From assembly GCA_028817405.1 (NCBI GenBank), contig JAPPPS010000121.1:9139-73138 (forward strand): 64,000 bases of DNA, written 5' to 3'. Both the position numbers and the translations under genes were made by a program. This stretch comes from Gammaproteobacteria bacterium (GTDB lineage: Bacteria > Pseudomonadota > Gammaproteobacteria > Arenicellales > Poriferihabitantaceae). Within the stretch, counting starts at the first letter, position 1. Every line of letters starts with the position of its first letter. The notes under the pieces are model-generated. The model was given only the letters and a program-made list of their open reading frames with translations, did no database searches and was not told where the DNA came from. This document shows positions 2,051 through 62,813 of the stretch, piece by piece.

Positions 2051-3949
2051 TTAGGCCACTTCAAACAAGTCCGCGCCGGCGTCGGCGATGAGCGGCGCGG
2101 CGCGGCCGATGACTTCGGCAAGCGCGCTCGCTTGCGGCATTTCCGCGGCGAAATAAAACTTGGCGGTGTGGATTTTGTGACGGTAGAAAGCGTCGCCGCC
2201 GTCGCCGCCATCGCCGCCATCGCGCGCCAACTCGGCGCGACTAACCGCCGCGGCTTTCAGCATCCGCCAGCCGCATGCGGTCACGCCCCACAACCGCAGA
2301 TACGGCTCGGCGACCGCGCCCGGCAACCGCGCATCGGCGGCGGCGGCGGCCACCAGCGACTCGGCCGCCGCCTGCAGCAAGTCCAGCGCGGCGCGCATGG
2401 CATCGGCCATGACGGTGATGTCTTGGTCGTCCGCGTCGCCCAGCGCCTCGCATTCGGCGCGAATGCGCGCAATCACCCGCGCCGTGGCCGCGCCGCCGTC
2501 GGCGGTCAACTTGCGCCCGACCAAGTCCATGGCCTGAATGCCGGTGGTGCCTTCGTAAATCGGCGTGATGCGCTGGTCGCGGTAGTGCTGCGCCGCGCCG
2601 GTCTCCTCGATGAAACCCATGCCGCCGTGCACCTGCAGCGCCAGCGACACATTCTCCACGCCGACTTCGGTGGCGTAGCCCTTGATGACCGGGGTCAGCA
2701 CTTCCAGCAGGTCGCGAGCGCGCGCCTTGGCCTCGGCGTCCGGCTGGCGGCGCGCGTGGTCGATGTTGGCGGCCACCGTCAGCGACAGCGCGCGCAGCGC
2801 TTCGATGCGGCATTTTTGTGCCAACAGCATGCGCTTGACATCGGGGTGGCGGATGATGGGGACGCGCTCGCCGCCGCCACCACCATTATCGTCCGCGCGC
2901 CCCTGAACGCGCTCGGCGGCGAACCCCGCCGCCTGCTGGTAGGCGCGCTCGGCCACGCCGTTGCCCTCCACGCCGACCGCGTGGCGCGCCAAGTTCATCA
3001 TCGTGAACATGTACATGAGGCCGCGGTTTTCCTCGCCGACCAGGTAGCCGATGGCGCCGCTGTTTTCGCTTTTTTCGCCACCGTCGTCGCCGCCATTTTC
3101 ACCGTCACCGCCACCGTCGCCGCCGGACTTGCCGCCGTACCCCAACACCGCGGTCGGGCTGGCGTGGATGCCGAGTTTGTGCTCCAGCGACAGCGTCTCG
3201 ATGGCGTTGCGCCGCGTCCATGCGCCGCGGTTGTCCGGGAGGAATTTCGGCACGATAAAAAGCGAGATGCCCTTGACTCCCGGCGGCGCGTCCGGGGTGC
3301 GCGCCAGCACCAAGTGGATGATGTTGTCGGTCAAGTCGTGGTCGCCGTAGGTGATGAAAATTTTCTGGCCGCTGATGCGGTGGTGGTCGCCGTCCGCCGA
3401 GGTCGTCGCGGGGACGGCGCGGGTGCGCACCGCGCTCAAGTCGGAGCCGGCCTGCGGCTCGGTCAGGTTCATGGTGCCGGACCATTCGCCGGACACCAAC
3501 TTCGGCAGGAAGGTGTCGCGCTGCCGCGGCGTGCCGTGCGCTTCGATGGCCGCAATCGCGCTCTGGGTCAGCAGCGGGCACAGCGAGAACGCCATGTTGG
3601 CGGCGTGCCAGATTTCCGCCACCGCGGTGGCCGCCAGCCACGGCAGGCCCTGGCCGCCGAACGCCGGGTCAAACGGCAGGCCGTTCCAGCCGCCGGCGAC
3701 GAACTGCCGGTACGCGTCCCGCCAGCCGTCCGCGGTCACCACCCGGCCGCCCTCCAGCCGCGCGCCGCGCCGGTCGCCGCTGTGGTTAAGCGGCGCGAGA
3801 ACTTCGGCCGCAAACTTGCCGGCCTCATCGAGAACACTGCGCAACAACTCCGGCGTGGCGTCCTCAAAACCCGGCAACCGGGCAACGCCGGCCAAATCAG
3901 CCAACTCACAAGCAAAAACCAAATCGCGGACAGGGGCGGTGTAGGGCAT
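2051..3949 (-). CDS. long acyl-CoA dehydrogenase with C-terminal extension domain
   Basis: Part of ORF 2051-4063. The best start is ATG 3947-3949 (MPYTAPVRDLVF). Acyl-CoA dehydrogenase blocks IFITYGDHD and GGMGFIEETGAAQHYRDQRITPIYEGTTGIQA are present. The gene contains a Gly/Asp-rich insert (GGKSGGDGGGDGENGGDDGGEKSENSG). Confidence 0.85.
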   Translation of the reverse strand: MPYTAPVRDLVFACELADLAGVARLPGFEDATPELLRSVLDEAGKFAAEVLAPLNHSGDRRGARLEGGRVVTADGWRDAYRQFVAGGWNGLPFDPAFGGQGLPWLAATAVAEIWHAANMAFSLCPLLTQSAIAAIEAHGTPRQRDTFLPKLVSGEWSGTMNLTEPQAGSDLSAVRTRAVPATTSADGDHHRISGQKIFITYGDHDLTDNIIHLVLARTPDAPPGVKGISLFIVPKFLPDNRGAWTRRNAIETLSLEHKLGIHASPTAVLGYGGKSGGDGGGDGENGGDDGGEKSENSGAIGYLVGEENRGLMYMFTMMNLARHAVGVEGNGVAERAYQQAAGFAAERVQGRADDNGGGGGERVPIIRHPDVKRMLLAQKCRIEALRALSLTVAANIDHARRQPDAEAKARARDLLEVLTPVIKGYATEVGVENVSLALQVHGGMGFIEETGAAQHYRDQRITPIYEGTTGIQAMDLVGRKLTADGGAATARVIARIRAECEALGDADDQDITVMADAMRAALDLLQAAAESLVAAAAADARLPGAVAEPYLRLWGVTACGWRMLKAAAVSRAELARDGGDGGDGGDAFYRHKIHTAKFYFAAEMPQASALAEVIGRAAPLIADAGADLFEVA

Positions 3950-4119
3950 GGTGGTGGCAGCAGGGAAACGAACCGCGATTATAAACGTACAATCCCGCGC
4001 GCGCCGCCACCCACGCCCTCGCCGCCACGCCCACAGTCTGTTAAGCGGACATTCGGCGCTCACTGGCCACTTCGGATGGTTGTGCTATTGTGCCGCCACA
4101 TTCACCAACGGAAAATATC

Positions 4120-4765
4120 ATGTACACCGACATCGACCGCCGAAAATTTCGATTTATTCGGTCATCCGCATCTCGACCGTCCGCGTTTGCCGCTGTGTTG
4201 TTGTCCGCCGCGTTGTTGTTTGGCGTGGCCGCGCCGGCGGCGGGCAAGACCCTGCACATGCACAACGGCGGCGACCCGGCGTCGCTGGACCCGCACAAGG
4301 TGTCCGGCGACTGGGAGAACCGCATCGTCGGCGATTTGTTCGAGGGGCTGGTCACCGAAGACCGCCAGGCATCGCCGATTCCCGGCATGGCGTTGCGGTG
4401 GGAGATTTCCGCCGACGGGCTGACTTATACTTTCCACTTGCGCGATGCCAAGTGGTCGGACGGAGAGGCCGTGACCGCGCATGATTTTGTGTTCGCGCTG
4501 CGGCGTTTAATGGACCCGCAAACCGCCGCCAACTACGCCTATTTGCAGTATCCGATTCGGGGCGCCGAGGCGGTCAACACGTTTAACCTTGCGATACAAC
4601 ACCAATGAGAACCACAAGCGCGTTGCCATCGCCGTGTCCGGCATGTGGAAAGCGTTGGGCGTGGCGACCGAACTGGTCAACACCGAAGTGAAAGTGCATT
4701 ACGATGACTTGCAGCGCAACACCGGTTTCGACATTGCGCGCGCCGGTTGGTGGAGCGGGGCATAA
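4120..4765 (+). pseudogene. decayed family-5 (OppA/DppA-like) peptide-binding protein gene
   Basis: A signal peptide and N-terminal ~160 aa (GGDPASLDPHK, TYTFHLRDAKWSDGEAVTAHDFVFALRRLMDP) end at a stop at 4606-4608. A fragment in another frame (4611-4765) encodes MWKALGVATELVNTEVKVHYDDLQRNTGFDIARAGW, which resembles the near-C-terminal part of the same family. The middle and the extreme C-terminus are missing, and no permease or ATPase genes follow. Confidence 0.7.
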
Positions 4766-4790
4766 AAAACCGCCCGGCGGGGCCGGGCGG
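4764..4790 (-). terminator. intrinsic terminator (9-bp GC stem, 3-nt loop, T6 on the minus strand)
   Basis: CCGCCCGGC (4770-4778) pairs with GCCGGGCGG (4782-4790). On the plus strand A6 lies at 4764-4769, so on the minus strand the hairpin is followed by TTTTTT. Confidence 0.6.
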
Positions 4791-4805
4791 TTGGGAGTTA
4801 TCGTG

Positions 4806-4816
4806 AGGCGGTTTCT
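4806..4816. repeat. left copy of the 11-bp direct repeat AGGCGGTTTCT flanking the low-GC island
   Basis: An identical 11-mer occurs at 8281-8291. Both copies sit where base composition changes. Confidence 0.55.
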
Positions 4817-5041
4817 TTCAAGTAAGTAAGAAAACGCTCGATCGCCGCTCATCGGCGCGGCTTGCTCGCAAAGCCGGGCCATGCGCCGGCGCAGCGCGGT
4901 TAGGTGGCGGTTGATGGAAACGCGGCTCAAGCGGGTCAGGGCGGCGATTTGCACGGCGTTCAAATCCAGCGCAAACAGGCGCAAGATGCGGCGGAATTTC
5001 GCATCCGAAATTCGAGAATGGTAAACATAGCGATTTGCCAT
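4817..5041 (-). pseudogene. N-terminal stub of an IS1595-family-like transposase (HTH part only)
   Basis: MANRYVYHSRISDAKFRRILRLFALDLNAVQIAALTRLSRVSINRHLTALRRRMARLCEQ matches my memory of the N-terminal HTH region of IS1595/ISXO2-like transposases. No DDE domain follows, and the reading frame runs out of the island into unrelated sequence. Confidence 0.5.
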
Positions 5042-5140
5042 TGATAATCAACAAGTTACGCATGTTTTGCATCATTTAAGTTATCATGACTCCTTAAAAA
5101 ACCCATACACCAAAAAAGCCGGATAAGAGTCATTTCATTA

Positions 5141-6067
5141 TTATTTCTGCAACCCAGCCGCTTTCGCCGCGGCCGAAGTCCAACATTTCACCCTCTTTAA
5201 TACATCCTCACTGATGTCGTCACAAACCTCAACGATTCGGCAACGGTCGAACAACAAACCGGCATCACTTATATCATTGTACCAATTGCTCCGTGACAAA
5301 GCCTCCGAAACAAAGAACGCACGTATGGGCGGAACAGCGGGGAAAGATTGAAGCCACTTTCTGCAGAACGAATCGGGTTGAAGTTGAGAAAGTGAATCTT
5401 TATAATTGGTTCCTGTTTTACACTGCCCAAAAATGATAAGTTGCCCCGCCGATTTATCCACAAAGGGTTTCCATGCGACAACATCGAGTTTGCCGTCTTT
5501 CTGATTCGATGAAGTGTTACTGCGACTCATGAAGCCGTTTCCTTCCTTAATCTTCCTGCAAAGATGATCGACTTTGTCAGAAAAACCGGCCGCCCCGGCA
5601 ACGGCACCAAAGACAACACTTTCGGCGCGGGGGCCAAGGTATTCTCGGGCTGATTCTGCGGCAAGTTCTTCGAAGAGAAGCGTACCGTCAATATCCGCAT
5701 AAATCTTGTTGCTTTGCATGTTCAAGCGGGTTGCCAAAAGCAGATACTTGTAAATTATGTGCTTTATATTACTGTCGGCAGTCTGATTGGCACGGAGTAT
5801 AGACCCCCTTCTGGTGATTTCGAACGGATACCCGTCTCCACATGCCTCCTTGCGCTGCTCAATCTCCATATATGTTTCTTCTACAATTTCATCCGCTACA
5901 TCTTCCTCCGGCACACCGCGAGAATAGTCGTTTTCTTCATTTCTGCCGAATAATTTGGACAGGGAAGCCATCGACAAGCCATTTCCCTGCCAACCGGTCA
6001 ACTCGGCAAAGTCGGCAATCTCGTGTTTGGGCGCACGAGCGGATGGAGACCCCGGCCACTTGAACAT
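5141..6067 (-). CDS. hypothetical protein with a possible PD-(D/E)xK-type nuclease core
   Basis: Part of ORF 5141-6070; the track start is TTG, and the ATG at 6065-6067 overlaps the upstream stop codon (TGATG). The candidate motif is GKLDVVAWKPF...IIFGQCKTG (D...QxK). I did not recognise the family. GC content is low. Confidence 0.6.
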   Translation of the reverse strand: MFKWPGSPSARAPKHEIADFAELTGWQGNGLSMASLSKLFGRNEENDYSRGVPEEDVADEIVEETYMEIEQRKEACGDGYPFEITRRGSILRANQTADSNIKHIIYKYLLLATRLNMQSNKIYADIDGTLLFEELAAESAREYLGPRAESVVFGAVAGAAGFSDKVDHLCRKIKEGNGFMSRSNTSSNQKDGKLDVVAWKPFVDKSAGQLIIFGQCKTGTNYKDSLSQLQPDSFCRKWLQSFPAVPPIRAFFVSEALSRSNWYNDISDAGLLFDRCRIVEVCDDISEDVLKRVKCWTSAAAKAAGLQK

Positions 6068-7176
6068 CAACCGCTGTTCCTCCGGCGTCTTTTATTATCG
6101 GATTTGCGCTTTCGCTTGCGATACATTTCACTGTGCAAATCCTCTGCAATCTCTGTTACTTCAGCGGCAATGCCAAGCAGTTTTTCAGAACCATCATAGC
6201 CGGTGGAGAGAGTGCTATGCGCTTTTTGAAGATGCCGCTTCGATGCGAGCAAGGATTCCTCAAAAACAGTGGATGATGGACGAGTTAACTCGTAGGCAGA
6301 ATCAAGGTCCACACCATCTCGCAGAGCGGCAAGCGCCTCTATATTATCTACGACAGCATCAAGTCGCCGAAGGTGGGGGTTCTGGGTCTTAACGACGGGA
6401 GGTATGTCATCCTTTTTGCTACCGTAAATCCAGAGGCAAATTTCACGGAGTTCCCCCTTTTTCCCGGGAGGTACCGGGTCCGAATATTCGTCTGCCACAG
6501 GCTGCAAATCGATAAAAGCGCTGATGCCGGGATATTCAAGTCCAGTATAAAGATGTGAAAATGCAAAATGATTCCGCCAGCGGTCTTCCCGGTCGAACAC
6601 TTTCAGTCGTTCAGCCTGCTCAACAACCATAAGGCCGCGGAACAATCTCTGAACTGTTTTATGTGTATCACCAATCTGTTTTGCTATGTCTTCGAGATTA
6701 ATCCCGAAATTTCTGTGCACATCCGCGATATATTGAGATTTGGCATAACTGCTCCATTTGGCCGGACCGTTTACATGCTTGAAGCCCAGATAACGCTAGG
6801 CCTTTTCCCGCGTACTGGATATTGCGGGGATTTCTTGCAGCGCTTTTTTGGCGTCCTTTCCAATGCCGGGAATGCTCTTTGCCAATCCCGGGACAAGATT
6901 AGGATTCAAAAGCAGTTTGACCGCCGCGAGACGGCGGTTTCCCTCAATAACAACATGTCGCCCGTTTTCTTCGGCGACAAGCACGGGTTCGTGACGAAAA
7001 AACCCGCTGGCGGCGATGGACATTGTCAACTCTTCCACATCCATCGCTTCCCACAGAATTTCCATCACTTCAGATTCTTTGGAATCATCAGTCAAATTGA
7101 ACTCGGCCAATCGAGGATTTTTGCGGTCAAAATGAAGATCCGATATCTTCATTAATCTGCTCGTTTCAGCGTTCAT
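6067..7176 (-). pseudogene. ParB/Srx-like N-terminal domain protein interrupted by a single in-frame TAG (6796-6798)
   Basis: ORFs 6796-7176 and 6067-6720 are in the same frame. The 75 nt between them are open and read RYLGFKHVNGPAKWSSYAKSQYIADV directly into the second ORF. The ParB-type motif VVIEGNRRLAAVKLL is present. Uninterrupted, the gene would encode about 369 aa. Confidence 0.8.
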
Positions 7177-8075
7177 CGGAACATCCTCTCTGGATTGATG
7201 TCGTCTCGCGCCCGGACATCTTCATTTTCCGGCGGCATGGGAATCTGTACATGCGAAGGAGAAATCAGCAATTCCCGCATCTGCTGTTTACGCTGCAGAC
7301 TGTATCGAATCGGGAGAGAATGGATGACGAAGGTTTCGTATAACCCCCTGATAAACCGTGCGTTGTCATATGACATAACCCACTTAAGTGTATTTTGGCG
7401 CCGCAGGTGACGGGCTAAATCATCATGTTCTTTGTGTGAATAGGAATTCAAGTAGAGGCGGCCACCTTTTGAATAATAGGGAGGGTCAAGATATACAAAC
7501 GCACGTTTCCGCCCATGCCCGCGAGGAAGGCGTTTTGCAAGGAACTCGCGCGCATCGGTGTTGGTAATGTGAATTTGCTCGCGTTTTTGCGCCACCTTGG
7601 TGACTCGTTCCGCGAGGCCCTCTCTGCCAAAACGGGCGTCGATTTTCCACTTCCCTGCCTGTGCATACCCCCCAATGGGGGCGGCCCCGGATAAAACGCC
7701 CGAACGGTTGCAACGATTCAGGTAGAAAGTGGCAAAACCGAGAGCAAAAGGATCCTTGGCATCCTTTCGCAAATACACTTGCCACTGTTTCTTCCACTCG
7801 GCAATGCTCACCGGAACGGACAAAATAGTATCAGCAAATCGCGCCGGTTCATTGAGAACGGCATGCCAGAAAGCGGTGATGCGGGGGTCCAGGTCGTTCA
7901 GGTAAATGTTAGAGACGGTGCCTTCCCGCAGAAGGCGCAATGCCGCCCCCGCGCCACCGGCAAACGGCTCAAAATACGGGCAGCCGGTAAGGTCGTTCAA
8001 CTCGATGGTCCGCCTCAGAAAGGCCGCAAGCGATGCCTTTCCCCCCGGATATCTAAGTGGACTATCGTGTTTCAT
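7173..8075 (-). CDS. Dam-class (D12, alpha-type) N6-adenine DNA methyltransferase
   Basis: Motifs LRYPGGK, EPFAGGAG (FxGxG) and YLDPPYY (DPPY) are present. The stop codon overlaps the ParB-like start (ATGA). Confidence 0.85.
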   Translation of the reverse strand: MKHDSPLRYPGGKASLAAFLRRTIELNDLTGCPYFEPFAGGAGAALRLLREGTVSNIYLNDLDPRITAFWHAVLNEPARFADTILSVPVSIAEWKKQWQVYLRKDAKDPFALGFATFYLNRCNRSGVLSGAAPIGGYAQAGKWKIDARFGREGLAERVTKVAQKREQIHITNTDAREFLAKRLPRGHGRKRAFVYLDPPYYSKGGRLYLNSYSHKEHDDLARHLRRQNTLKWVMSYDNARFIRGLYETFVIHSLPIRYSLQRKQQMRELLISPSHVQIPMPPENEDVRARDDINPERMFR

Positions 8076-8280
8076 GTTCCGCTAATCTCGTTCGGGTCGC
8101 CCCTGATCGCCCAAGGCTACACCGGAACCTCTGACTTCGGGTGACATTGTAACGCCCACAGGCGGCCTCGTTTCACGGGTTGGCCCGAAAAGCCATCATT
8201 CACCTTTGCGCGCACATCGACCTTACCGGTAACTATATCGGCAGTCAAGCGGGTGTACGGGCTCAAAAAGCATGAAATTA

Positions 8281-8432: not shown

Positions 8433-9650
8433 CTAATACGACCTCGGCAGGCGCAGCGCATGTTCGGCGATGTAACTCAAAATCATGTTGGTGGAAACCG
8501 GTGCGGTGCGGTATAGGCGGGCTTCGCGGTATTTGCGCTCGAGGTCGAATTCTTCGGCGAAACCGAATCCGCCGTGGGTTTCCATGCAGGCCTCGGCCGC
8601 GGCCCAGGAGGCATCCGCGGCCAGCAACTTGGCGAGATTGGATTCCTCGCCGGGGGCATGGTTGTAGCCCCGGCCGCTTTCGCGGTGCCGGCCGCCGCCG
8701 TTGTCGCGGCCGTCGCATTCGTCCATTTCATACCGCCGCGCCGCCTCGCGCAGCATCAACTCGGCCGCGCGCATGTCGGCGTAGGCGCGGGCGATGGGGA
8801 ACTGCACGCCTTGGTTCTGGCCGATGGGGCGGCCGAACACCCGCCGCCGGCCGGCGTAGTCGACCGCCTTGCCGATGAACCACTTGGCATCGCCGATGCA
8901 CTCGGCGGCGATGAGAATGCGCTCGGCGTTCAGGCCGGACAATATGTAACCGAAGCCGCGGCCTTCGTCGCCAATCAAATTCTCCGCCGGTACCGCGAGG
9001 TCGTCGAAGAACACTTCCGTGCTCGCATGATTCATCATCGTCCGCAGCGGTTTGATGGTCAGATTCTTTGCCGGCGCATCGCGCAAGTCGACCAACAGCA
9101 CCGACAACCCGTCGGTTTTCTTGGCGACTTTTTCGCGCGGCGTGGTGCGGCACAGCAGCAGCATTAAATCGGAATGTTCAGCGCGCGAAGTCCATACTTT
9201 TTGGCCGTTGACGAGGTATCGGCCGCCGTCGCGCCGCGCGGCGGTGCGCAGCGAAGTGGTGTCGCTGCCGCTGCCCGGCTCGGTCACGCCGAACGCTTGC
9301 AGGCGCAACCTACCGGCGGCGATGCCCGGCAGGTATTTTTGCTTCTGCGCCGCCGAGCCGTGCCGCAGCAGCGTGCCCATGGTGTACATCTGCGCGTGGC
9401 AGGCGGCGGCGTTGCACCCCGCGCGGTGGATTTCCTCGAGAATCGCCGCGGCCGCGGAAATCGGCAGGCCCGCGCCGCCGTAGCGGTCCGGAATCAGCGC
9501 GGCGAGGAAGCCGGCCGCGGTCAACGCGTCGACAAATTCCTGCGGGTAGGCGCGCGCGCGGTCGAGACGCCGCCAGTATTCGCCCGGAAAACCCGCGCAC
9601 AACCGCGCCACCGATTCGCGGATGTCGCGGTGGTTCGACTCAAGCGTCAT
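8433..9650 (-). CDS. acyl-CoA dehydrogenase
   Basis: The 405-aa ORF carries the blocks FGVTEPGSGSD, LVNGQKVWTS and ETHGGFGFAEEFDLERKYREARL. It contains a Gly/Arg/Asp-rich insert (DECDGRDNGGGRHRESGRG). Confidence 0.85.
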   Translation of the reverse strand: MTLESNHRDIRESVARLCAGFPGEYWRRLDRARAYPQEFVDALTAAGFLAALIPDRYGGAGLPISAAAAILEEIHRAGCNAAACHAQMYTMGTLLRHGSAAQKQKYLPGIAAGRLRLQAFGVTEPGSGSDTTSLRTAARRDGGRYLVNGQKVWTSRAEHSDLMLLLCRTTPREKVAKKTDGLSVLLVDLRDAPAKNLTIKPLRTMMNHASTEVFFDDLAVPAENLIGDEGRGFGYILSGLNAERILIAAECIGDAKWFIGKAVDYAGRRRVFGRPIGQNQGVQFPIARAYADMRAAELMLREAARRYEMDECDGRDNGGGRHRESGRGYNHAPGEESNLAKLLAADASWAAAEACMETHGGFGFAEEFDLERKYREARLYRTAPVSTNMILSYIAEHALRLPRSY

Positions 9651-10443: not shown

Positions 10444-11358
10444 TCACGATGATTGCGCGGCGATGACCGCCAGGCCGCGCAACACCAAGTCCGGCGCGCA
10501 CTCCGCGCCGGCGCTCAGCAACTGCGCGAGGCGGCCGGCGTCGCCGCCGGTGACGATGACGGTGCATTCGCTTTGCAACGCCGCCAGTTGCGCCGCGACC
10601 GCGCGCTCGACTCCGCCGGCGAGCGCCAACCACGCGCCGCCGGCCACCGCCGCTTGGGTGTCGGTGGCGAGGGCGGTGGCGAGGGTTGCGGCGACGGTGG
10701 GGGCGACTTCCGTGGCATCGGCGACATCAGCGGCAGCGGGGCCAGGCGCGGCGCAGTCGTTTTCGCCGGCACCGTCACCGGCACCGGCACCAGCACTGTC
10801 ACTGTCACCGTCGTCACCGGGGCCGCCGAGGTTTGCGGTTTGGCGGCGCAGTGCCTCGCGCATGGCGCGCGCGCCGGGCAGGATGATGCCGCCGCGGAAC
10901 ACGCCGCCGGCGTCCAGCGCGTCCACCGTCACCGCGCTGCCGGCGTCGACCACGATGACCGCGCGGCGCGGGAACATGCGGCGCGCGCCCACTAACGCGG
11001 CCCACCGATCGCCGCCCAAGCGCGCCGGTTGCGGGTAGGAATTGACCACGCCGGCTTGGCGCGCCGGCGATGCGATGAACGCCGGTTGCAAGTTCCAAAC
11101 GCGGCCGGCGACCGCGGCGATGATTTTCTCAACCGCCGGCCCGGCCACGCACGATGCCCACACCGCGGCCGGCTCCAGCCCGGCCCACGCCGCGGTCAAT
11201 GCGGCGTGCAATTCCGCCGGCGAGTTGCGCTCGATGGCGACCGCATCGCCGATGTCGAGGCCGGAGTCGGGGGCGGAGTCGCGGTTGGTGTCGCGGCCGG
11301 CGGCGCGGGTGACCGCCCATTTCAGTCGATGGTTGCCGGCGTCGATTAACAGTTTCAT
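10444..11358 (-). CDS. coaX: type III pantothenate kinase
   Basis: Part of ORF 10444-11547. The start ATG at 11356-11358 (MKLLIDAGNHRLKW) overlaps the birA stop (ATGA). The gene contains a Gly/Asp/Ala-rich insert of about 45 aa. Confidence 0.8.
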   Translation of the reverse strand: MKLLIDAGNHRLKWAVTRAAGRDTNRDSAPDSGLDIGDAVAIERNSPAELHAALTAAWAGLEPAAVWASCVAGPAVEKIIAAVAGRVWNLQPAFIASPARQAGVVNSYPQPARLGGDRWAALVGARRMFPRRAVIVVDAGSAVTVDALDAGGVFRGGIILPGARAMREALRRQTANLGGPGDDGDSDSAGAGAGDGAGENDCAAPGPAAADVADATEVAPTVAATLATALATDTQAAVAGGAWLALAGGVERAVAAQLAALQSECTVIVTGGDAGRLAQLLSAGAECAPDLVLRGLAVIAAQSS

Positions 11359-12196: not shown

Positions 12197-15100
12197 TTAT
12201 GCAACCGCGTCGATTTTTTTCATGACTTTGGCGGTCTCAACCAGAGCGACGATGATTTTTTGGTAGCGGTTGATTTCATCCGGAGTCAGCGCGCGATTTT
12301 TGCGGTCTTTGAGATACTTTTGCGCCGGTTGATAGCCGCCGATGTAAAACTCCCAAGCGGATTTCGGCGCTTGGGCGAAGTGTTGGGTTTTGTTAATCCA
12401 CACTTTGCCGTTGTCGAACTTGACGGCGGTGACGGTGTTGTCGCCGGGTTCGGGGTAGGTGGTGATTAACCGGTTTAACTTTTCGCTTTCCATGAGATGC
12501 AACGCGCGCAACTCGGCGCCGAGTTTGGCGAGGGCGCGGAATTGTTTTTTGTCGCGCGGATAGGGGACGCGGGGGAAGTCGATTTTCAGGAATTCGCGGA
12601 ATTTCTCCCGGTAGGTTGGGCCGTGGAGGACGGCGTAGATGTAGTCGAGAATATCCACCGGCGCAAAAGCATTGCGGGCGGCGGTTTTTTCCGGGGTGAA
12701 TGTCATGTCGATGTTGCCGGCGATTTGTTGAACGATGTCGGCGTTGAGGTTGGGCTTGCGCGACGGTTGACCGTCGAGGCGGGTTTGTTCCTCATCGGGG
12801 TAGAGGTAGAGCGGAAAAACATATCCCCACTCTCCGGTTACGCAACCCTCGCAGATACTTTTGGTGATAAACGCATGCTGAAAGGCGGGCGCGCTCTGCA
12901 GTCGCACTTGGCGTACCGTGATGAGCGCGAGATTCTCACCGTCCAACATGTGGCGCATGGTTTTGTGCCGCGGATAAGCCAGAAAGCCCTTGGTTCTCCC
13001 GGTGTAAAGGGTTTTTCTGGCGTCAAACGGCCGGTACAGGATGGAAACCGTTCGCGGCCCGCCTTCCTGAACATCCTGTTTTGCCCATGCGACTCTCCAG
13101 TCGCGGCCGTCATCCGGCAGGAGATACTTCTCCCTGATTTCTTCCGCATCCAACCGTTCCAAGTCTTTTCTGACTTTGCCGATTTCCGCCGTGGACATGG
13201 CGACGGTCAGATGGTCCCGTTTGGTTTGTATGCCGGAATTGTATTCTTCAAACAGCGCGTTGACGGCGAAACCTTTTTGATATTCCGCCTGCGCGGAAAA
13301 ATCCTTCGGCACGAAGAAAAAATGCGGCGCGCGCGGTTTCAGTTTGCGAAACTTCACCTTGCTGAGCGCGTTGCTCCACAAGAATTCATACTTGCTCTGC
13401 CGCGCGCCGAACAGGTCACGGTAAAACACCTCGGCCAAAGCGCCATTTTTCTTTTTGTTGCTCTTGACAAAAATGTTGATGGAAACACCCTGCATAATGT
13501 CGAATACATTCTGGTCCTTTGAGCCGTCCGGCGCGCGTTCTTTCTTGCGCGTGTCACCGTGCAGATTAAGAACATAAATGCGGTCGAAGGTTTCCAACAA
13601 ACGCTCGCGCATGCGACGGTGGGTGATGCCATCGACAAAACTGTTGTTGGAGATATATGCGAGGATGCCTTCACCGGTTTTGTCGACCAAGTACTCACCG
13701 AAACGAATGAACTTGATATAGTCATCGTCCAGATTCAGTTTTTTCTCGTTGAGCCCTTCTTTGTAATCCGCAATTAAATCCTGAATCCACCGTCCACGGT
13801 TGCTGCTGCTAACCGCATACGGCGGATTACCCATCACCACCATCACCGGCGCATTGCGCTTGACTTCATCGGCGCCGCGCGCTTCCTGCACCAGCCAGTT
13901 GGCGAACGGAATATCGCGCATCTGGGTCTCGGCCTCGCGATTCTCCAGCGAGTTCGTGAGGAAAATCCGCAGCCGTTGCCCGCCCAAGTCGAAACCAGTC
14001 TCTTTCAAAATCATCTCCAACTTCACATGCGCCATCGCGTACGGCGCCATGAGAATTTCAAAACCATTCAAACGCGGCAGCAAATCATCCCGAACATAAT
14101 CGGGCCACACACCCCGCTGGCCGCGAAAACTTTCGTGGATAAACTGCACGATGTCGGCAAGAAAAGTCCCGGTGCCGGTGCCGGGGTCGAGAATCTGCAC
14201 CTTGTGCACCTCTTTTTCCGCGCCATCCACCGTCACCATCGTTTTTGCGGTATCCCCCAGTCCGCCGGACAGTTTGAATTCCTTCTTCAGAATCTCATCC
14301 ACCGCGCGCACGATAAAATTCACCGCCGGGGCCGGGGTGTAATACACGCCGCGACTCTTGCGCAACTTTCCATCGTACTGGCCGAGAAAGGTTTCGTAAA
14401 AATGAATGAACGGGTCGGTGCGCTGCGTCGACCGGCCGAAGTCTTTCATCAACGCGCCCACATCGGTGGCGCGGAAAATATCGGCCAAGTCGTCGACGAG
14501 CCAGCGAATGCGCGCATCCAAATCATAGTCGGCGATATAACCGAAGAACTTTTTCAAGAACGGATTGCTGCCGGGAATGAGTTTCGCCGCTTCATGACGG
14601 GTGAAAGTCATGGGCGTCGGGTCATGCAGGCGCGCGACGAACATGCCGTACGCGATGGTCTGCGCATAAATGCCGGCAAACCGCGGCGGCTTGATGCCAG
14701 CGTCCAGAATTTCCCGGAACGCTTTCAGTTGGTTTTGCAACTCGCCGTCACCGTCCGCGCCGCCGTTTTCCTCATCATCAGCCAACGCCCCGGCAATCAC
14801 TTGCCCAAGCAGCCGCGCTTTGTCGGCCATGCGTTTTGCCAAGTCATCCGCGGCGGTGATGGTCTGGCCCTGGTATGCGCTGAAGTCGGCGATGAGATTT
14901 TTGAGACGCGCAAAATTCTCCGGCAACGGTTTGATTTTTCCGCCGCGCAACTCGGCGATGGCGACGGTGTCCACCGGTTTGGTCTCAGCGTCCCGGTGGA
15001 AACGAAACTCCAAATAGTTGGTGAAGATTAAGTTGTCGAGCGATTGGAGATAGCGGTTGAACTGGTCGCCGAATGCTTTGTCGTCCAATGACTTGTCGAC

Positions 15101-15325
15101 ATCCTTGGCCTCGATATAGCCGAGCGGAATGGCGTTGCGCGCCAGCACATAATCCGGCGCGCCGCAGTCGGTGATGCGGCGCGGTTCGTTGGTGATGTCC
15201 ACGCCGGGCAGCATGGCGCGCAGCAAGATTTCCAAGTCGCCACGGTAAGTATGCTCGGTGGCGTTGCCGCGGCGGTGGCGCTCGGCGACGGCTTTAAGAT
15301 AGGCGCGGATGGCGGGCGGGGACAT
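12197..15325 (-). CDS. single-polypeptide Type IIG-like restriction-modification enzyme (N-terminal PD-ExK nuclease, gamma-type N6-adenine methyltransferase, C-terminal specificity region)
   Basis: Part of ORF 12197-15463. The start is ATG 15323-15325 (MSPPAIRAYLKAV). A nuclease-like motif reads GAPDYVL...GYIEAKD, the AdoMet motif is ILDPGTGTGTFL and the catalytic motif is VVMGNPPYAV. GC content is visibly lower than in the neighbours. Confidence 0.75.
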   Translation of the reverse strand: MSPPAIRAYLKAVAERHRRGNATEHTYRGDLEILLRAMLPGVDITNEPRRITDCGAPDYVLARNAIPLGYIEAKDVDKSLDDKAFGDQFNRYLQSLDNLIFTNYLEFRFHRDAETKPVDTVAIAELRGGKIKPLPENFARLKNLIADFSAYQGQTITAADDLAKRMADKARLLGQVIAGALADDEENGGADGDGELQNQLKAFREILDAGIKPPRFAGIYAQTIAYGMFVARLHDPTPMTFTRHEAAKLIPGSNPFLKKFFGYIADYDLDARIRWLVDDLADIFRATDVGALMKDFGRSTQRTDPFIHFYETFLGQYDGKLRKSRGVYYTPAPAVNFIVRAVDEILKKEFKLSGGLGDTAKTMVTVDGAEKEVHKVQILDPGTGTGTFLADIVQFIHESFRGQRGVWPDYVRDDLLPRLNGFEILMAPYAMAHVKLEMILKETGFDLGGQRLRIFLTNSLENREAETQMRDIPFANWLVQEARGADEVKRNAPVMVVMGNPPYAVSSSNRGRWIQDLIADYKEGLNEKKLNLDDDYIKFIRFGEYLVDKTGEGILAYISNNSFVDGITHRRMRERLLETFDRIYVLNLHGDTRKKERAPDGSKDQNVFDIMQGVSINIFVKSNKKKNGALAEVFYRDLFGARQSKYEFLWSNALSKVKFRKLKPRAPHFFFVPKDFSAQAEYQKGFAVNALFEEYNSGIQTKRDHLTVAMSTAEIGKVRKDLERLDAEEIREKYLLPDDGRDWRVAWAKQDVQEGGPRTVSILYRPFDARKTLYTGRTKGFLAYPRHKTMRHMLDGENLALITVRQVRLQSAPAFQHAFITKSICEGCVTGEWGYVFPLYLYPDEEQTRLDGQPSRKPNLNADIVQQIAGNIDMTFTPEKTAARNAFAPVDILDYIYAVLHGPTYREKFREFLKIDFPRVPYPRDKKQFRALAKLGAELRALHLMESEKLNRLITTYPEPGDNTVTAVKFDNGKVWINKTQHFAQAPKSAWEFYIGGYQPAQKYLKDRKNRALTPDEINRYQKIIVALVETAKVMKKIDAVA

Positions 15326-15461
15326 GGGGAAAGTATAGCGATATTCGGGCGGCGGCGCGGGGAAATTTGGCGGCGGCGCGGCGATTTGTGTTATGGTTGC
15401 GCGCTCACCGAGTGAGACCATCCCCGCCGCCGCAACGCGCGCATGGCGGCGGCACAGCGCC

Positions 15462-35791: not shown

Positions 35792-35858
35792 GAATCGCGG
35801 CACGGTGTTACCAACGGCGATACGTTAACGCGGCATCGACATGAAAACGCGCATCAAC

Positions 35859-46230: not shown

Positions 46231-46232
46231 GC

Positions 46233-46890: not shown

Positions 46891-47388
46891 ATGGCCGCGA
46901 AAATCGACGCGTACATCAAACTGCAAATTCCCGCGGGCGAAGCCAAGCCCAGCCCGCCGGTCGGCCCCGCATTGGGCCAGCACGGCGTGAACATCATGGA
47001 ATTCTGCAAGGCCTTCAACGCCGAGACCGAAGACCTGGAAAAGGGCTTGCCGATTCCGGTGGTCATCACTGTGTACGCCGACAAGAATTTCACCTTCGTG
47101 CGCAAGACCCCGCCGGCCGCGGTGCTGCTGAAGAAAGCGGCCGGCATTGATAAAGGCAGTGGTGTGCCTAACCGCGACAAAAAGGGCGTGGTCACCCGCG
47201 CACAACTGGAGGACATCGCCCGCGTCAAGGAAGCCGACTTGAACGCCTACGACTTGGAGCAGGCGGTGCGCATCATCGCCGGCAGCGCGCGCAGCATGGG
47301 CATCGACATCGCCGACACCGTCGAGAACGCCGACACCGCCGAGCCCACCGCCACCGCCGACATCGCCACCGAGGAGGCCGCGGCATGA
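46891..47388 (+). CDS. rplK: 50S ribosomal protein L11 with a ~20-aa acidic C-terminal extension
   Basis: Starts [43 protein letters not shown]. The stop overlaps the rplA ATG (ATGA). Confidence 0.95.
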
Positions 47389-49126: not shown

Positions 49127-49290
49127 CCGCCGTCCATGCTGTCGCCGTCGTTGTCACCGTCACCGGTGGCGTACGCGCTGTCGCCGTTGCCGGCGGCGGC
49201 GCGTTGTCGACTGTCGGACTGCCGTCGACGGTCACCGTCGACCGTCACCGTCGACGGTCACCATCGACGGTGGCGCCGTCATTCGCCCCT
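49127..49290. repeat. GTCACC/GTCGAC-rich short-repeat tract in the rplL-rpoB spacer
   Basis: TTGTCACCGTCACCGG...GCCGTCGACGGTCACCGTCGACCGTCACCGTCGACGGTCACCATCGACGG. This is the same hexamer family as the coding inserts, but here it is non-coding. Confidence 0.8.
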
Positions 49291-49373: not shown

Positions 49374-58420
<9,047 letters not shown>

Positions 58421-59596: not shown

Positions 59597-59626
59597 TTTC
59601 GTCTCACTTCGAAGTTCATCGCGCGA

Positions 59627-60157
59627 TTATACGCGCCGGTTTTGCCGCGCGCCGCCGCCGACAACATGGTCGAGAATGATGCACGCCGCGCCGATGGAAA
59701 TCGCGCTGTCCGCGAGGTTGAAGGCCGGGAATTGCCGGCCGCGGTGGTGCAGCACGATGAAGTCGATGACGAATTGATAAAGCGCGCGGTCGATGAGATT
59801 GCCGAGCGCGCCGCCGAGTAGCAGCGCCAAGCCGCAGCACAACAACGCGCCGTTTTGATGCGTCGCGCGCGTCGCGCGCCACAGCCACGCCAGCAAAACC
59901 AGCGACAGTACCGCCGCGAGAGCGCTTAAAAAAATCGTTTGCCAGCCGCCGGCGTCGGCGAGAAAACCGAACGCCGCGCCGCGGTTGAACACCAACTGGA
60001 AGCGCAGAACCGGCAGGAGGTCCACCGCCGCGCCGCCGGCCAGCATCGACCACGCGAGGTGTTTTGTTGCTTGGTCCGCGGCGACGATGGCAACGGTGAG
60101 CGCGATGTAGCCGGCGAACTTCCGCGCCGGTGATGCGTTTGATGCCGCGGCGTTCAT
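59627..60157 (-). CDS. lspA: lipoprotein signal peptidase II
   Basis: Four TM segments and the FNLADSAISIGAACIILD motif. The start overlaps the ribF stop. Confidence 0.85.
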   Translation of the reverse strand: MNAAASNASPARKFAGYIALTVAIVAADQATKHLAWSMLAGGAAVDLLPVLRFQLVFNRGAAFGFLADAGGWQTIFLSALAAVLSLVLLAWLWRATRATHQNGALLCCGLALLLGGALGNLIDRALYQFVIDFIVLHHRGRQFPAFNLADSAISIGAACIILDHVVGGGARQNRRV

Positions 60158-61164
60158 GCGCCGGCACCGTCACCGTCACCGGCACCGGCACCGGCACCGT
60201 CACCGCGGCCGGAATCACCGTCACCGACGCCCAACAGTCGCCGCGCCACCGCCGCGTCTTCGCCGATGCGCTCGATGAGTTCGGCGTAACTGCCGAACTT
60301 TTTCTCGTCGCGAATGCGCGCGACGAATTCCACGCACACGCGCCGGCCGTACGCGTCGCCATCGCAGGGGTAGTCGAACAAGTGAACTTCCAACACGATG
60401 TCGGAGTCGCGCAAGGTCGGGCGGTTGCCGAGGCTGGCGACGCCGGGCAGCGGCGCGCTACCTAAGCCGCGCACCGTCACCGCGAAGATGCCGCGCAGCG
60501 CCGGGCGGTGGCGGACCGCCAGATTGATGGTCGGGAAACCCCATGCGCGCCCGCGCTGTTTGCCGCGCCGCACCCGCCCGACATGCGCGTAGCGCCGGCC
60601 GAGCAACAACTCGGCCGCGGCCAAATCGCCGCCCGCCAACAACTCCCGGATGCGCGAACTGCTGACGCGCGCGCCGCCGTGTTCGATGGCGGGGACGCGC
60701 TCGAGCGTGTAGTCGCCGGCGCCGGCCATGGTCTCCAGCAGTTGAAAATCGCCGCCGCGGCGCGCGCCAAAACGGAAGTCATCGCCAATCAAGAGATGCC
60801 GCACTTTCAATCGCTCGACCAAGTGGCGGCGGACGAAATCTTCGGCGGAGGTTTGCGCCAAAGCGCGGTTGAAACGCAGACTCAGCATGATGTCCACGCC
60901 GCAGTCGCGCAGCGCGAAGAAGCGCGCGGCGGTGGTGGTCAAGCGCGGCGGCGGCGCGGCATCGGCCCGGGCGCGCGCGAAAAATTCCTGCGGATGCGGG
61001 TCGAAAGTCATGACCACGGCCGGCAAGTGGCGCTGCTTGGCGCGCGCGGTGAGGTCGCGCAAGATTCGCCGGTGGCCGATATGCACCGCATCGAAGTTGC
61101 CGATGGTGAGCGCGCAGCCGCGGGCCGGCAGGGCGGATGAGTCGATGGAGCGAATGAGTTGCAT
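60154..61164 (-). CDS. ribF: bifunctional riboflavin kinase / FMN adenylyltransferase with a Gly/Asp/Ala C-terminal tail
   Basis: Carries TIGNFDAVHIGHRRIL and GFPTINL. The tail reads GVGDGDSGRGDGAGAGAGDGDGAGA. Confidence 0.9.
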   Translation of the reverse strand: MQLIRSIDSSALPARGCALTIGNFDAVHIGHRRILRDLTARAKQRHLPAVVMTFDPHPQEFFARARADAAPPPRLTTTAARFFALRDCGVDIMLSLRFNRALAQTSAEDFVRRHLVERLKVRHLLIGDDFRFGARRGGDFQLLETMAGAGDYTLERVPAIEHGGARVSSSRIRELLAGGDLAAAELLLGRRYAHVGRVRRGKQRGRAWGFPTINLAVRHRPALRGIFAVTVRGLGSAPLPGVASLGNRPTLRDSDIVLEVHLFDYPCDGDAYGRRVCVEFVARIRDEKKFGSYAELIERIGEDAAVARRLLGVGDGDSGRGDGAGAGAGDGDGAGA

Positions 61165-62813
61165 TAGGCGTCCGGGGTGTGCGCGGTCGATGCTTGGTTG
61201 CGGTCACCGTCACCGTCGCCGGCACCGTCACTGTCACCGCCGCCACCGATATTCCGCGCCTGCCACAACGCGCGCAACCGTACGCCGAACACGAACAGCG
61301 CGGCGAAATACACCAGCGCGCCGGCCGCCACCCACGCCAACAACTGCATCGCCCGCGGCCCGGCCGGCATGGCAATCCACGCATCGCCGCCGGGCCCGCC
61401 GCCGCCCCACCACAGCAGCGCGCCCATCGCGCCCGCGGCCGCGCCGACCTTAAACAAAAACCCGCCCCAGCCCGGCGCCGGCCGGTAGATTCCGGCGCGC
61501 CGCAACGCGACCAACAACAAACCGGCGTTCAGATACGCGGCCAACGATGTCGCCAACGCTAAGCCGACATGCTGCAACGGCCACACCAGCAGCAAACTAA
61601 AAACGATATTCGCCGCCACCGCGAGCATGCCGATGCGCACCGGCGTGCGCGTGTTGTGGTGCGCGTAAAAACCGGGCGCGAGGATTTTCACCATGACGAT
61701 GGCGGTCAGGCCGAGCGCGTACGCGACCAAACTCGCGGCCGCCATGCGCACGCCGAGCGCGCTGAAATCGCCGTGGTGGTAAATCGCGGCGATGAGCGGC
61801 CCCGCCAGCACCGTCAAGCCGACCGTGGCCGGCGCGCAGACCAAAAATACCCATCGCGCGGCCCAATCGATGGTGGCGGAAAACGCCGCGGCCGAGCCGC
61901 CGGCGCGTTTGCGCGACAAGTCCGGCAGGATGGCGGTGCTGAGCGCGATGCCGAAAACGCCGACCGGGAACTCCATCAGACGGTCCGAATAGTACAGCCA
62001 GGCGATGCTGCCGGTGGCCAAAAACGACGCCAGCAAGGTGCCGACCAGGACGTTGATTTGCGCCACCGACACGCCGAGAATCGCCGGCACGGTCAGCGCG
62101 AATACGCGGCGCACACCGTCGGCCGCGGTCCGGTCTTGCGCGCCGGCGACCAAGCGCGGGCGGATGGGGAGTTTTTCGCGGCGCAGGAACGGAATCTGGA
62201 ACGCTAATTGCAACGCGCCCGCGGCCGCCACGCCGACCGCCAACGCGATGGGCGCATCGGCAAACCGCGGCGCCAACCACCACGCGGCCGCGATGAGGCA
62301 GAAGTTCAGCAGCACCGGCGTCGCGGCCGGCGCGGCGAACCGGCCGCAGGTGTTCAGCATGGCCGCGGCCATCGCCACCAACGAGATGAAAAACAAATAC
62401 GGGAAGGTGATGCGCGTGGCGTCGACCGCCAACTGAAACTTTTCCGGCTGCGCCAAAAATCCCGGCGCGACCACCGTCACCAGCGCCGGGGCCGCGGCCG
62501 CGCCGGCGACCGATGCGAGCAAAAGAATCAAACCGAAGCGGCCCAACATTAACTGCAGGAATCTCGCGTTGTCCGCGGCCGGGCGGTGCATGCGGAAGTC
62601 GGTGAACACCGGCACGAACGCGGCCGAGAACGCGCCCTCGGCGGAAATGCGGCGGAAGAAATTGGGAATGCGGAAGGCGACGAAGAACACATCCGCGGCC
62701 GCGCGGTCGCCCAACAGATGCGCGAACACCACATCGCGCAGCAGACCGGTCAAGCGCGACAGCAGCGTCATCGTACCGATAACCGCGGTCGAGCGAATGA
62801 GTTTGGCGGGCAT
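61164..62813 (-). CDS. murJ: lipid II flippase MurJ (MviN) with a Gly/Asp C-terminal tail
   Basis: Starts MPAKLIRSTAVIGTMTLLSRLTGLLRDVVFAHLLG...FFVAFRIPNFFRRI and has about 14 TM segments. The tail reads [17 protein letters not shown]. Confidence 0.9.
   Translation of the reverse strand: MPAKLIRSTAVIGTMTLLSRLTGLLRDVVFAHLLGDRAAADVFFVAFRIPNFFRRISAEGAFSAAFVPVFTDFRMHRPAADNARFLQLMLGRFGLILLLASVAGAAAAPALVTVVAPGFLAQPEKFQLAVDATRITFPYLFFISLVAMAAAMLNTCGRFAAPAATPVLLNFCLIAAAWWLAPRFADAPIALAVGVAAAGALQLAFQIPFLRREKLPIRPRLVAGAQDRTAADGVRRVFALTVPAILGVSVAQINVLVGTLLASFLATGSIAWLYYSDRLMEFPVGVFGIALSTAILPDLSRKRAGGSAAAFSATIDWAARWVFLVCAPATVGLTVLAGPLIAAIYHHGDFSALGVRMAAASLVAYALGLTAIVMVKILAPGFYAHHNTRTPVRIGMLAVAANIVFSLLLVWPLQHVGLALATSLAAYLNAGLLLVALRRAGIYRPAPGWGGFLFKVGAAAGAMGALLWWGGGGPGGDAWIAMPAGPRAMQLLAWVAAGALVYFAALFVFGVRLRALWQARNIGGGGDSDGAGDGDGDRNQASTAHTPDA

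Follow-up and report, generated by a model that had tools for sequence, protein, structure and literature searches.

Short tracts built from a GGYGAY-type hexamer, read as Gly-Asp, interrupt or extend a number of proteins in the DNA analysed here, and the question arises how such tracts came to lie in housekeeping genes of a bacterium, and why they are read in one frame. The DNA, called the window throughout, comprises 64,000 nt of contig JAPPPS010000121.1 (GenBank assembly GCA_028817405.1, Gammaproteobacteria bacterium). It is a bacterial chromosome segment with 63.5% GC, 91% of which is coding. The canonical block tRNA(Tyr-Gly-Thr)-tuf-tRNA(Trp)-secE-nusG-rplKAJL-rpoBC is located at 44.1-58.4 kb, and metabolic and transport genes are found elsewhere. 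Tract data were drawn from the 64 kb of the window and from about 10 kb of the same genome past its right edge. According to these data, it appears quite likely that the tracts arose by slippage-driven GAC-GGT expansion at tolerant loops and termini, filtered by purifying selection on the peptide and followed by mutational decay.

Excess and reading frame of the Gly-Asp tracts

The window was searched for the motif GGYGAYGGYGAYGGYGAY, of the (GGYGAY)3 type, with up to two mismatches allowed, and 100 dinucleotide shuffles served as control. There were 70 matches in the window versus 0.64 +/- 0.92 in the shuffles (maximum 3). Placed on a curated gene map, the 70 matches formed 26 clusters, corresponding to 4.1 clusters per 10 kb. 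For comparison, 70 control loci from other Gammaproteobacteria, 8-21 kb each and with a GC content of 0.34-0.70, contained 0-2 clusters per 10 kb, almost always consisting of single hits. Nearly all control loci showed 0-5 hits per ~20 kb, and one locus had 11.

Sixteen of the 26 clusters, located in 13 genes, are in sense orientation and in phase 0, with GGY at codon position 1, and therefore read Gly-Asp. The genes encode a long acyl-CoA dehydrogenase (ACAD), CoaX, a molybdopterin oxidoreductase (two clusters), a GlnA-like protein (two clusters), an EamA transporter, Rpe, ProV, a LanM-like protein, a ThcOx-like protein (two clusters), an FAD-linked oxidase, an S8 peptidase, RibF, and MurJ. 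Six clusters are antisense and short (1-2 hits, at 404, 10690, 14954, 16619, 46003, and 47302), two are sense but off-phase (at 46131 and 62470), and two are intergenic. When only long clusters with at least three overlapping matches are considered, the picture becomes uniform. All nine read Gly-Asp, and none reads Val-Thr, Ser-Pro, or His-Arg.

This uniformity is not expected from the hexamers available for expansion. Outside the tracts, single hexamers specify Val-Thr 164 times as GTC ACC and 92 times as GTG ACG, His-Arg 29 times, Ser-Pro eight times, and Gly-Asp 53 times. If expansion tracked seed abundance, nine long tracts all reading Gly-Asp would be obtained with P ~0.15^9 = ~4e-8. The frame filter separates mutation supply from selection in that the tracts disregard a seed disadvantage of about 5:1. 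Moreover, sense-strand Val-Thr seeds outnumber Gly-Asp seeds (92 versus 53), yet a Val-Thr tract is not present, so that strand-specific mutation does not account for the frame. The orientation of the tracts goes with the gene and not with the neighbourhood, since the plus-strand molybdopterin oxidoreductase gene has plus-strand tracts although it is surrounded by minus-strand genes. An explanation by replication orientation was ruled out on these grounds. The 10 kb past the right edge of the window (L105) served as an out-of-sample check and revealed one long tract, located at the C-terminus of Obg, again sense and in phase 0.

The tracts and related repeats are listed below with coordinates and strand. 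Tandem arrays were detected by Tandem Repeats Finder (TRF).

2186-2227, minus strand: long ACAD, tract c, (GAT GGC GGC)n = DGGDGGDGGD, period 9 (TRF, Pfam)
2867-2902, minus strand: long ACAD, tract b, ADDNGGGGGE
3071-3127, minus strand: long ACAD, tract a, SGGDGGGDGENGGDDGGEK, separating the middle domain from the C-terminal domain (Pfam)
8688-8717, minus strand: second ACAD, weak Gly/Asp/Arg insert, CDGRDNGGGR
10756-10833, minus strand: loop insert in CoaX (type III pantothenate kinase), GGPGDDGDSDSAGAGAGDGAGEND; the PDB alignment is broken after residue 178
17684-17734, plus strand: molybdopterin oxidoreductase, tract a, orientation as the gene strand
18095-18157, plus strand: molybdopterin oxidoreductase, tract b, (GAC/GAT GGT)x8, the purest array of the window
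19082-19114, minus strand: OYE/dienoyl-CoA-reductase-like protein, short tract, AGDGPGDNG
19457-19495, minus strand: OYE-like protein, second short tract, MDGGDGENEN
21713-21859, minus strand: GlnA-like protein (glutamine synthetase family), insert of ~46 aa in the loop following the NVF strand
25085-25138, minus strand: EamA transporter, loop, NRGGGGIDEKTGDGDRN
25461-25586, minus strand: Rpe, C-terminal tail of ~40 aa, the longest array (period 6, ~22 copies)
28524-28576, minus strand: junction of proV stop and permease start; Gly-Asp reading only with a permease start at TTG 28580, tract absent from a sister strain
28736-28768, minus strand: ProV, tract in the C-terminal domain, DGVGDSGDGDS, rewritten in the sister strain
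29579-29650, minus strand: ProV, N-terminal tract, RDGDGGGGGNNRDDGGGDNRGRN, 6 nt shorter in the sister strain
35198-35236, minus strand: LanM-like (DUF4135) protein, AGDGDDGDGD, no indel here in L100, an independent assembly
37340-37426, minus strand: ThcOx/nitroreductase-like protein, tract b, GGGGDKAGGDGGGDDAGDGGGDSGDS, with 12 to 18 nt fewer in other strains
37472-37513, minus strand: ThcOx-like protein, tract a, GGDGNGGDG; Ns (scaffold gap) at exactly this site in L100
38164-38238, minus strand: FAD-linked oxidase (GlcD-like), loop, ADDGDGNSNSNGDGDGDSGGGGN, ancestral loop 7 aa
41083-41220, minus strand: S8 peptidase, Gly/Phe/Asp-rich segment with Gly-Asp runs at 41083-41112 and 41176-41220
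49141-49164, plus strand: non-coding GTCACC-type run directly after the rplL stop, opposite to transcription
49222-49271, plus strand: palindromic 13-mer array CCGTCGACGGTCA x3.8 in the rplL-rpoB spacer, hairpin, repeat type unlike the coding tracts
52884-52946, plus strand: RpoB, 16-aa insert, decayed Gly-(Asp/His/Asn) hexamer tract
60157-60231, minus strand: RibF, C-terminal tail, GVGDGDSGRGDGAGAGAGDGDGAGA; in a 99.86% identical contig 6 nt longer, tail rewritten
61194-61256, minus strand: MurJ, C-terminal tract, sense Gly-Asp cluster

The original prediction had placed hexamer tracts at 13 sites, and each of these indeed holds a Gly/Asp-type tract in the orientation given. Its estimate of about 20 genes was too high; 13 genes are obtained when the DNA sequence is the criterion and 17 under a permissive protein rule, which includes native motifs. 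For RpoB (52885-52943) a plus-strand tract is present as claimed, but its sequence is not GGTGAC. It is a decayed Gly-His/Asn variant with the codons GGC GCC GGC AAA GGC GGC AAA AGC GAC GGT CAC GGC AAC GGC CAC GCT CAC GGT. That another reading never occurs is true for all long tracts but not for the six short antisense and the two off-phase sense clusters. Of the spacer between rplL and rpoB, which had been regarded as one non-coding tract in reverse orientation, the antisense GTCACC run at 49141-49164 fits this description, while the 13-mer array at 49222-49271 is a separate element.

In practical terms, the tracts shift the start sites chosen by gene callers and yield false overlapping 'VTVTV' open reading frames (ORFs). 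Gene callers differ on the permease next to the proV junction tract (736 versus 704 aa), and the tract itself may be non-coding. In near-identical contigs, the GlnA-like protein is called with 512 or 502 aa. The N-terminal part of ORF 24302-25621 and ORF 59616-60362 represent the VTVTV reading of the Rpe and RibF tail tracts and were rejected as a spurious extension and a spurious overlap, respectively. The true genes at these positions are those for EamA, starting at ~25357, and LspA (59627-60157).

Growth, decay, and strain variation

Codon usage inside the tracts is different from that of the remaining coding sequence. GGT accounts for 43% of the Gly codons within tracts (n=185) versus 9% outside (n=1339), and AGT for 41% of the Ser codons versus 11% elsewhere. 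When written out as codons, the tracts consist of GAC GGT units mixed with AAC, AGT, GCC, GAA, CAC, and GGC, each one substitution away from the unit. This pattern of rare codons and single substitutions is a DNA-level microsatellite signature. TRF arrays of period 6, 9, or 12 are located at the tracts, and one hexamer family makes up 9 of the 22 period-6 rows. Tract lengths form a continuum of hexamer steps between 24 and 147 nt, and a comparison of the tract flanks revealed no common flanking sequence, ends, palindromes, or target duplications. Units of GAC-GGT accompanied by one-step variants, together with the lack of shared flanks, fit expansion of a hexamer and subsequent decay rather than convergence at the peptide level or insertion of a mobile element.

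Comparisons with homologues revealed where the tracts had been added. The closest Rpe matches in species-representative genomes are from Gammaproteobacteria and reach at most 78% identity among the matches listed, none of which is congeneric, indicating an organism without a close cultured relative. These matches also provided the control loci for repeat density. The best 80 of 597 confirmed Rpe homologues from these genomes align to about residue 228 of 271, and the tail of 40 aa is therefore peculiar to this lineage. In RpoB, the insert is placed behind residue 1156 of the E. coli protein, and neither the latter nor 12 gammaproteobacterial homologues possess it. When the C-terminal RpoB fragment was used as a query, mostly partial proteins with at most 77% identity and no close relatives were obtained. 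Homology of RibF stops at residue 312 of 336, and the PDB alignments of CoaX, the GlnA-like protein, and the molybdopterin oxidoreductase break at the tracts.

For two families, loop growth could be followed along the lineage. The loop of the FAD oxidase consists of 7 aa in about 50 homologues (e.g. SSEQDSH), of 11-14 Asp/Gly residues at 83-85% identity, of 20 aa in a 97% strain, and of 25 aa in the window. In other relatives the same loop is filled by Thr-Asp or Gly-Glu-Gly-Val units. The segment after the NVF strand of the GlnA-like protein has about 32 residues in most homologues (FDGGGEYGTP...), 29-40 at 77-81% identity, 78 aa in the window, and 83 aa in a 95% relative. Since the loops of the homologues are short and already bear Gly/Asp residues, the inserts are expansions of pre-existing loops. 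The inserts of Rpe, RpoB, RibF, the GlnA-like protein, and the FAD oxidase are missing in homologues, but most tracts grew from short Gly/Asp loops and were not added at empty sites. In an AlphaFold2 model of the FAD oxidase (mean predicted local distance difference test score, pLDDT, 83.7), the tract is predicted as coil with pLDDT 55-76 between the confidently predicted strand E333-341 and helix H366-379; for the Ala/Ser-rich N-terminal extension, disorder is predicted. A further Gly/Asp insert (GGGDGDGDE / GGGDGGGDD) is found in relatives at about 72% identity, at another FAD-oxidase site near the N-terminus, indicating that Gly/Asp expansion extends beyond the species of the window.

Strains with 95-97% identity to the window differ in the tracts. 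In ProV, the N-terminal tract is 6 nt shorter and the C-terminal tract is rewritten. The ThcOx-like tract is shortened by 12 to 18 nt, the FAD-oxidase tract by 15 nt, and the N-terminal Ala/Ser region of the latter protein by 9 to 30 nt. Two 9-mer arrays are also shorter, one encoding the C-terminus of L11 (-27 nt) and one in the LanM-like gene (-15 nt). The tracts of RpoB, MurJ, and the LanM-like protein are unchanged between the strains compared (RpoB versus a 97% strain). Over 30.5 kb compared, 9 of 15 coding indel regions fall into TRF arrays, which represent 2.5% of the bases (binomial p = 1.5e-11), and three of the six others sit in weaker repeats. Net coding indels are multiples of three, except for -2 in the S8 peptidase gene, which was attributed to an alignment edge. 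The length polymorphism expected by the original prediction is thus borne out by in-frame indels concentrated in the tracts of strains 95-99.9% identical. Its proposal of slippage or insertion combined with selection on the frame gains support from the rare-codon signature, the frame rule, and lineage specificity, from which the mechanism is inferred.

The tracts are part of a more general phenomenon. There are 60 non-overlapping TRF arrays with a score of at least 40 in the window (9.4 per 10 kb), while control loci typically show ~1-2 and a maximum of 6.9 per 10 kb. Periods divisible by three are found for 39 of 47 arrays in genes. The intergenic 8.7% of the window contains 13 arrays, six with a period that is a multiple of three and seven without (periods 7, 8, 13, 16, 20, and 22). 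Among the in-frame tandem repeats, which are in excess generally, Gly/Asp tracts are the commonest class. In two relatives with genomes of ~3 Mb (78% and 72% identity), the TRF density is intermediate (4.2 per 10 kb) and only short Gly/Asp runs are found, and a 60% relative with 50% GC has none. None of the 60 arrays is located in the four low-GC restriction-modification blocks of the window, which fits slow accumulation in resident genes.

From these results the following course of events can be proposed. Replication slippage would expand a GAC-GGT (Asp-Gly) hexamer, at times 9- or 12-base relatives of it, at surface loops and chain termini already bearing a short Gly/Asp motif. The arrays would keep growing and shrinking by unit steps, and point mutations would then blur them, changing GAC to AAC, CAC, or GCC and GGT to AGT or GGC. 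Selection on the peptide would retain only arrays that are read as flexible, hydrophilic Gly-Asp and sit in a loop or tail tolerating them, and arrays read as Val-Thr, Ser-Pro, or His-Arg would be lost; one frame contains a stop. As to their role, the inserts probably represent near-neutral passengers and not functional modules, near-neutrality being an assumption. The window offers an unusually clean natural example of birth, growth, and decay of low-complexity inserts in bacterial core proteins.

Several points weigh against this explanation. In eight contigs of ~99.9% identity from at least six sequencing samples, there are zero indels in any tract; the exception, at 99.86% identity, is the RibF tail, which is 6 nt longer and partly rewritten. 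On short timescales, the tracts are thus not hypermutable. That slippage is the mechanism is read from the pattern of the sequences, and translation of the tracts is predicted from open frames. GAC-GGT dominates although GGT is a rare codon in this genome. That Ala exceeds Val among the derived residues could be a consequence of GC-biased mutation instead of selection, and a function could be hidden behind the inserts retained in RpoB, Obg, L11, and the glutamine-synthetase catalytic domain.

The last point leads to the alternative that Gly/Asp tracts are positively selected and that slippage merely supplies variation. Acidic disordered 'entropic bristles' for solubility, Ca2+/Mg2+-binding patches fitted to conditions in the host, and flexible linkers were considered as roles. 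The strict use of a single hydrophilic acidic frame would agree with such roles, as would the retention of inserts in the highly constrained RpoB, Obg, and GlnA-like catalytic domain, the expansion continuing along the lineage in two families, and the Gly/Asp insert elsewhere in the FAD oxidase of the 72% relatives. Acidic low-complexity regions of haloarchaea have been read as adaptive (PMC6821194). However, tract length and sequence vary freely among 95-97% strains, at times to the point of being rewritten or absent, and the same loop in relatives holds unrelated units (Thr-Asp, Gly-Glu-Gly-Val). The host genes have no functional theme in common, and the rare-codon signature indicates mutational supply, not peptide optimisation. 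The proteome sample is also not acidic overall (D+E 11.7% versus K+R 11.1% over 35 window proteins), by which a halophile-type acidic proteome was ruled out. Positive selection is therefore considered unlikely. Also unlikely is a dedicated, lineage-specific mutational mechanism or selective regime that expands GAC-GGT, the G-rich strand being the non-template strand, and thereby installs acidic Gly/Asp bristles proteome-wide. If true, it would amount to a remodelling of the core proteome (RNA polymerase, Obg, L11, metabolic enzymes) that is adaptive in a host-associated niche, and divalent-cation buffering, solubility, or condensate control would be possible gains.

A sequence-specific process or function of (GGTGAC)n on the non-template strand, with the Gly-Asp frame as a by-product, was also considered. 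Candidates are G-run structures or expansion by R-loops, a protein-binding or recombination signal, and an interaction with restriction-modification systems, of which the window has at least four gene blocks. Dominance of a single hexamer family among the period-6 arrays points in this direction, and so do the related repeats ACCGTCA and CCGTCGACGGTCA in intergenic DNA and the fact that the coding strand is the G-rich strand in all genic tracts. Strand choice, however, leaves the frame unexplained, as judged from the abundant sense-strand Val-Thr seeds that gave no tract. The sole clearly non-coding run is oriented oppositely, point mutations erode the arrays and nothing indicates that their sequence is maintained, and different units were expanded at the same loop in relatives. 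Such a process is improbable as the source of the tracts, and the data do not require it.

In-frame mobile mini-elements, translated like the Rickettsia palindromic elements, would yield similar inserts at surface positions in many unrelated genes, as seen here, but they are hardly compatible with the lack of shared flanks, termini, palindromes, and target duplications, with continuous lengths in hexamer steps, and with gradual growth along the phylogeny. Finally, an artefact of assembly, or of wrong starts and stops that place the tracts outside real coding regions, can practically be dismissed: naive ORF calls do mislead at 28524-28576 and in the false N-terminal extensions of EamA and ORF 59616-60362, and one scaffold (L100) has an N-gap precisely at a tract, but most tracts are internal, with Pfam- or PDB-aligned sequence in the same frame on both sides, strain indels keep the frame, and the same tract sequences are present in independent ENA, Logan, and JGI assemblies of different samples. 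Identity of the tracts in ~99.9% contigs from separate samples means that they are not assembly artefacts, a possibility by which the original prediction could have failed. The Ns of L100, an independent assembly, extend over ~2470-2575 (corresponding to 37490-37516 of the window) at the first ThcOx-like tract and suggest that tracts break short-read assemblies or vary within a sample.

Other repeats and neighbouring genes

Besides the Gly/Asp tracts, further in-frame low-complexity segments are present as tails on RpoC and NusG and as a 21-mer array in the OYE-like protein. The 3' end of rplK (47304-47367) consists of the 9-mer array CGACACCGC x7 and gives L11 an acidic Asp-Thr-Ala C-terminal tail of ~23 aa. 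In the LanM-like gene, a perfect 36-bp tandem duplication (33737-33808, 2.0 copies, 100% match) codes for DSAATAAAKVAK twice and looks very recent.

In intergenic DNA, the 13-mer array at 49222-49271 is centred on the palindrome ACCGTCGACGGT and shows small indels in the 97% strain. The whole rplL-rpoB spacer (247 nt) has a folding energy of -126.8 kcal/mol (z = -3.6), and its hairpin may act as an attenuator or processing hairpin. Two arrays, TTTGAACCG (period 9) and TTCAACCG (period 8), are located between folE and the S8 peptidase gene (39939-40030). Assemblies of ~99.85% identity have 16 bases more at this position, the sole repeat-length difference in those contigs. A 22-mer minisatellite (x3.7, 35858-35935) between the ThcOx-like and LanM-like genes is 20 nt shorter in L100, and a 42-mer minisatellite (x2, 43899-43983) lies upstream of the tRNA cluster and shows variation in the 97% strain.

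The four blocks of lower GC (0.52-0.57) with restriction-modification genes are located at 4583-8144, 12197-15463, 22754-24256, and 62950-63906. They contain, respectively, a D12-class adenine methylase gene with three unannotated ORFs, a gene for a 1088-aa Type ISP enzyme, a gene for a fusion of an N4/N6 methylase and an Mrr-like nuclease, and an N4/N6 methylase gene followed by a DpnII-like gene outside the window. This density of restriction-modification genes is unusually high for 64 kb. The ORF at 4090-4608 (172 aa) aligns with no more than positions 1-76 of the SBP_bac_5 profile (family 5 solute-binding protein, 368 positions) and stops at the start of a low-GC block; it is probably a gene remnant, cut by insertion of the restriction-modification island.

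A possible cluster of the type encoding ribosomally synthesised and post-translationally modified peptides (RiPP) extends from 30851 to 37633. It comprises genes for a nitroreductase (30851-31525), the DUF4135 protein (32603-35791), and the ThcOx-like oxidase (35924-37633). The DUF4135 protein is LanM dehydratase-like and has 1062 aa with no recognisable cyclase domain. The ThcOx-like protein is of the cyanobactin oxidase/nitroreductase type, and the gene for the S8 peptidase is close by (40294-43125). Two tRNA calls by ARAGORN, 11022-11113 (92 nt, in CoaX) and 42298-42393 (96 nt, in the S8 peptidase), were rejected. They are over-long, located inside coding sequences, and have no Rfam support, and they are probably false positives from GC-rich repeats.

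With respect to the organism, exact-protein look-ups detected the sequence of the window in many metagenome assemblies. A homologue at 59-60% identity carries the NCBI annotation Candidatus Spongiihabitans, a genus met in sponge papers only. From this homologue, the prefixes of contig names, and the density of restriction-modification genes, a sponge-associated gammaproteobacterium is the probable source of the genome.

Comparison with known repeat systems

RTX repeats (GGxGxDxUx) are Ca2+-binding repeats of secreted proteins; one period comprises nine residues, including a conserved hydrophobic one, and the repeats fold into a beta-roll. They share with the tracts the character of Gly/Asp-rich tandem peptides in Gram-negative bacteria. 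The tracts, in contrast, have a 2-residue period and are predicted as coil, and they are located in cytoplasmic and membrane housekeeping proteins. Accordingly, Pfam searches gave no RTX/HemolysinCabind hit in the tract-bearing proteins, and a regular hydrophobic residue was not found in the tracts.

The Rickettsia palindromic elements, which Ogata et al. are said to have described in 2000, are reportedly conserved, palindromic, mobile sequences of ~100-150 bp that are inserted in-frame in many unrelated conserved proteins. The resemblance lies in extra peptide segments at the surface that are compatible with function, but the tracts have neither a conserved core nor conserved ends.

At the scale of a single unit, the Gly-Asp duplication in loop 3 of OmpK36 from Klebsiella pneumoniae is similar, being a recurrent in-frame duplication of 6 nt that adds Gly-Asp to a surface loop (PMC5655098). 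It is, however, one drug-selected duplication in one porin and not a genome-wide set of arrays. Phase-variable contingency loci of host-adapted bacteria, reviewed in works to which PMC12699852 refers, also consist of short tandem repeats that are indel hot spots and vary among strains. Here, the units are multiples of three and the frame is kept, the hosts are housekeeping enzymes and not surface or virulence genes, and almost no variation is detected within the 99.9% population. On/off switching by frameshift was not observed, since strain indels are in-frame apart from the -2 in the S8 peptidase gene.

The Asn-rich inserts of Plasmodium falciparum constitute the classical analogue in eukaryotes. 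They occur genome-wide in loops of conserved enzymes, are driven by slippage, and are polymorphic among isolates (PMC3140889, PMC5762703), and their composition follows from genomic base bias and tolerated hydrophilic disorder. Differences are the eukaryotic host with its extreme AT bias and the Asn/Lys tracts, which are much longer and more numerous. In addition, the unit described here uses GGT, counter to the bias of the genome for GC at third codon positions.

Among prokaryotes, low-complexity regions resulting from short-repeat dynamics are widespread and transient and can affect ancestral functions (Persi et al. 2023, PMC10120016). Bacterial genomes are generally not enriched in short tandem repeats, which constitute indel hot spots (PMC12699852). 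In a survey of 1500 proteomes, myxobacteria had the highest low-complexity load, with Gly (25%) and Asp (15%) leading (Ntountoumi et al. 2019, PMC6821194). The Gly/Asp regions of myxobacteria, for example Enhygromyxa salina, resemble the tracts in being lineage-specific, in-frame short repeats that expand and contract in housekeeping proteins of a high-GC genome. The present organism belongs to another phylum and has another lifestyle, namely that of an uncultured gammaproteobacterium whose relatives have ~3 Mb and not large genomes. It also differs in that a single rare-codon hexamer dominates and that the frame filter, stepwise loop growth, and strain polymorphism are shown.

A search of the literature on Gly-Asp (GD) repeats and low-complexity inserts in sponge symbionts yielded no paper on the tracts of this lineage, but only the OmpK36 duplication and general work on low-complexity regions and short tandem repeats. 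Models of low-complexity turnover could be tested on this lineage, as could the tolerance of loops in RpoB, glutamine synthetase-family proteins, and RibF. Taken together, the case is a lineage example of the known low-complexity regions born by slippage and not a new kind of system; what is distinctive is the single rare-codon hexamer, the explicit frame filter, and the well-resolved growth series.

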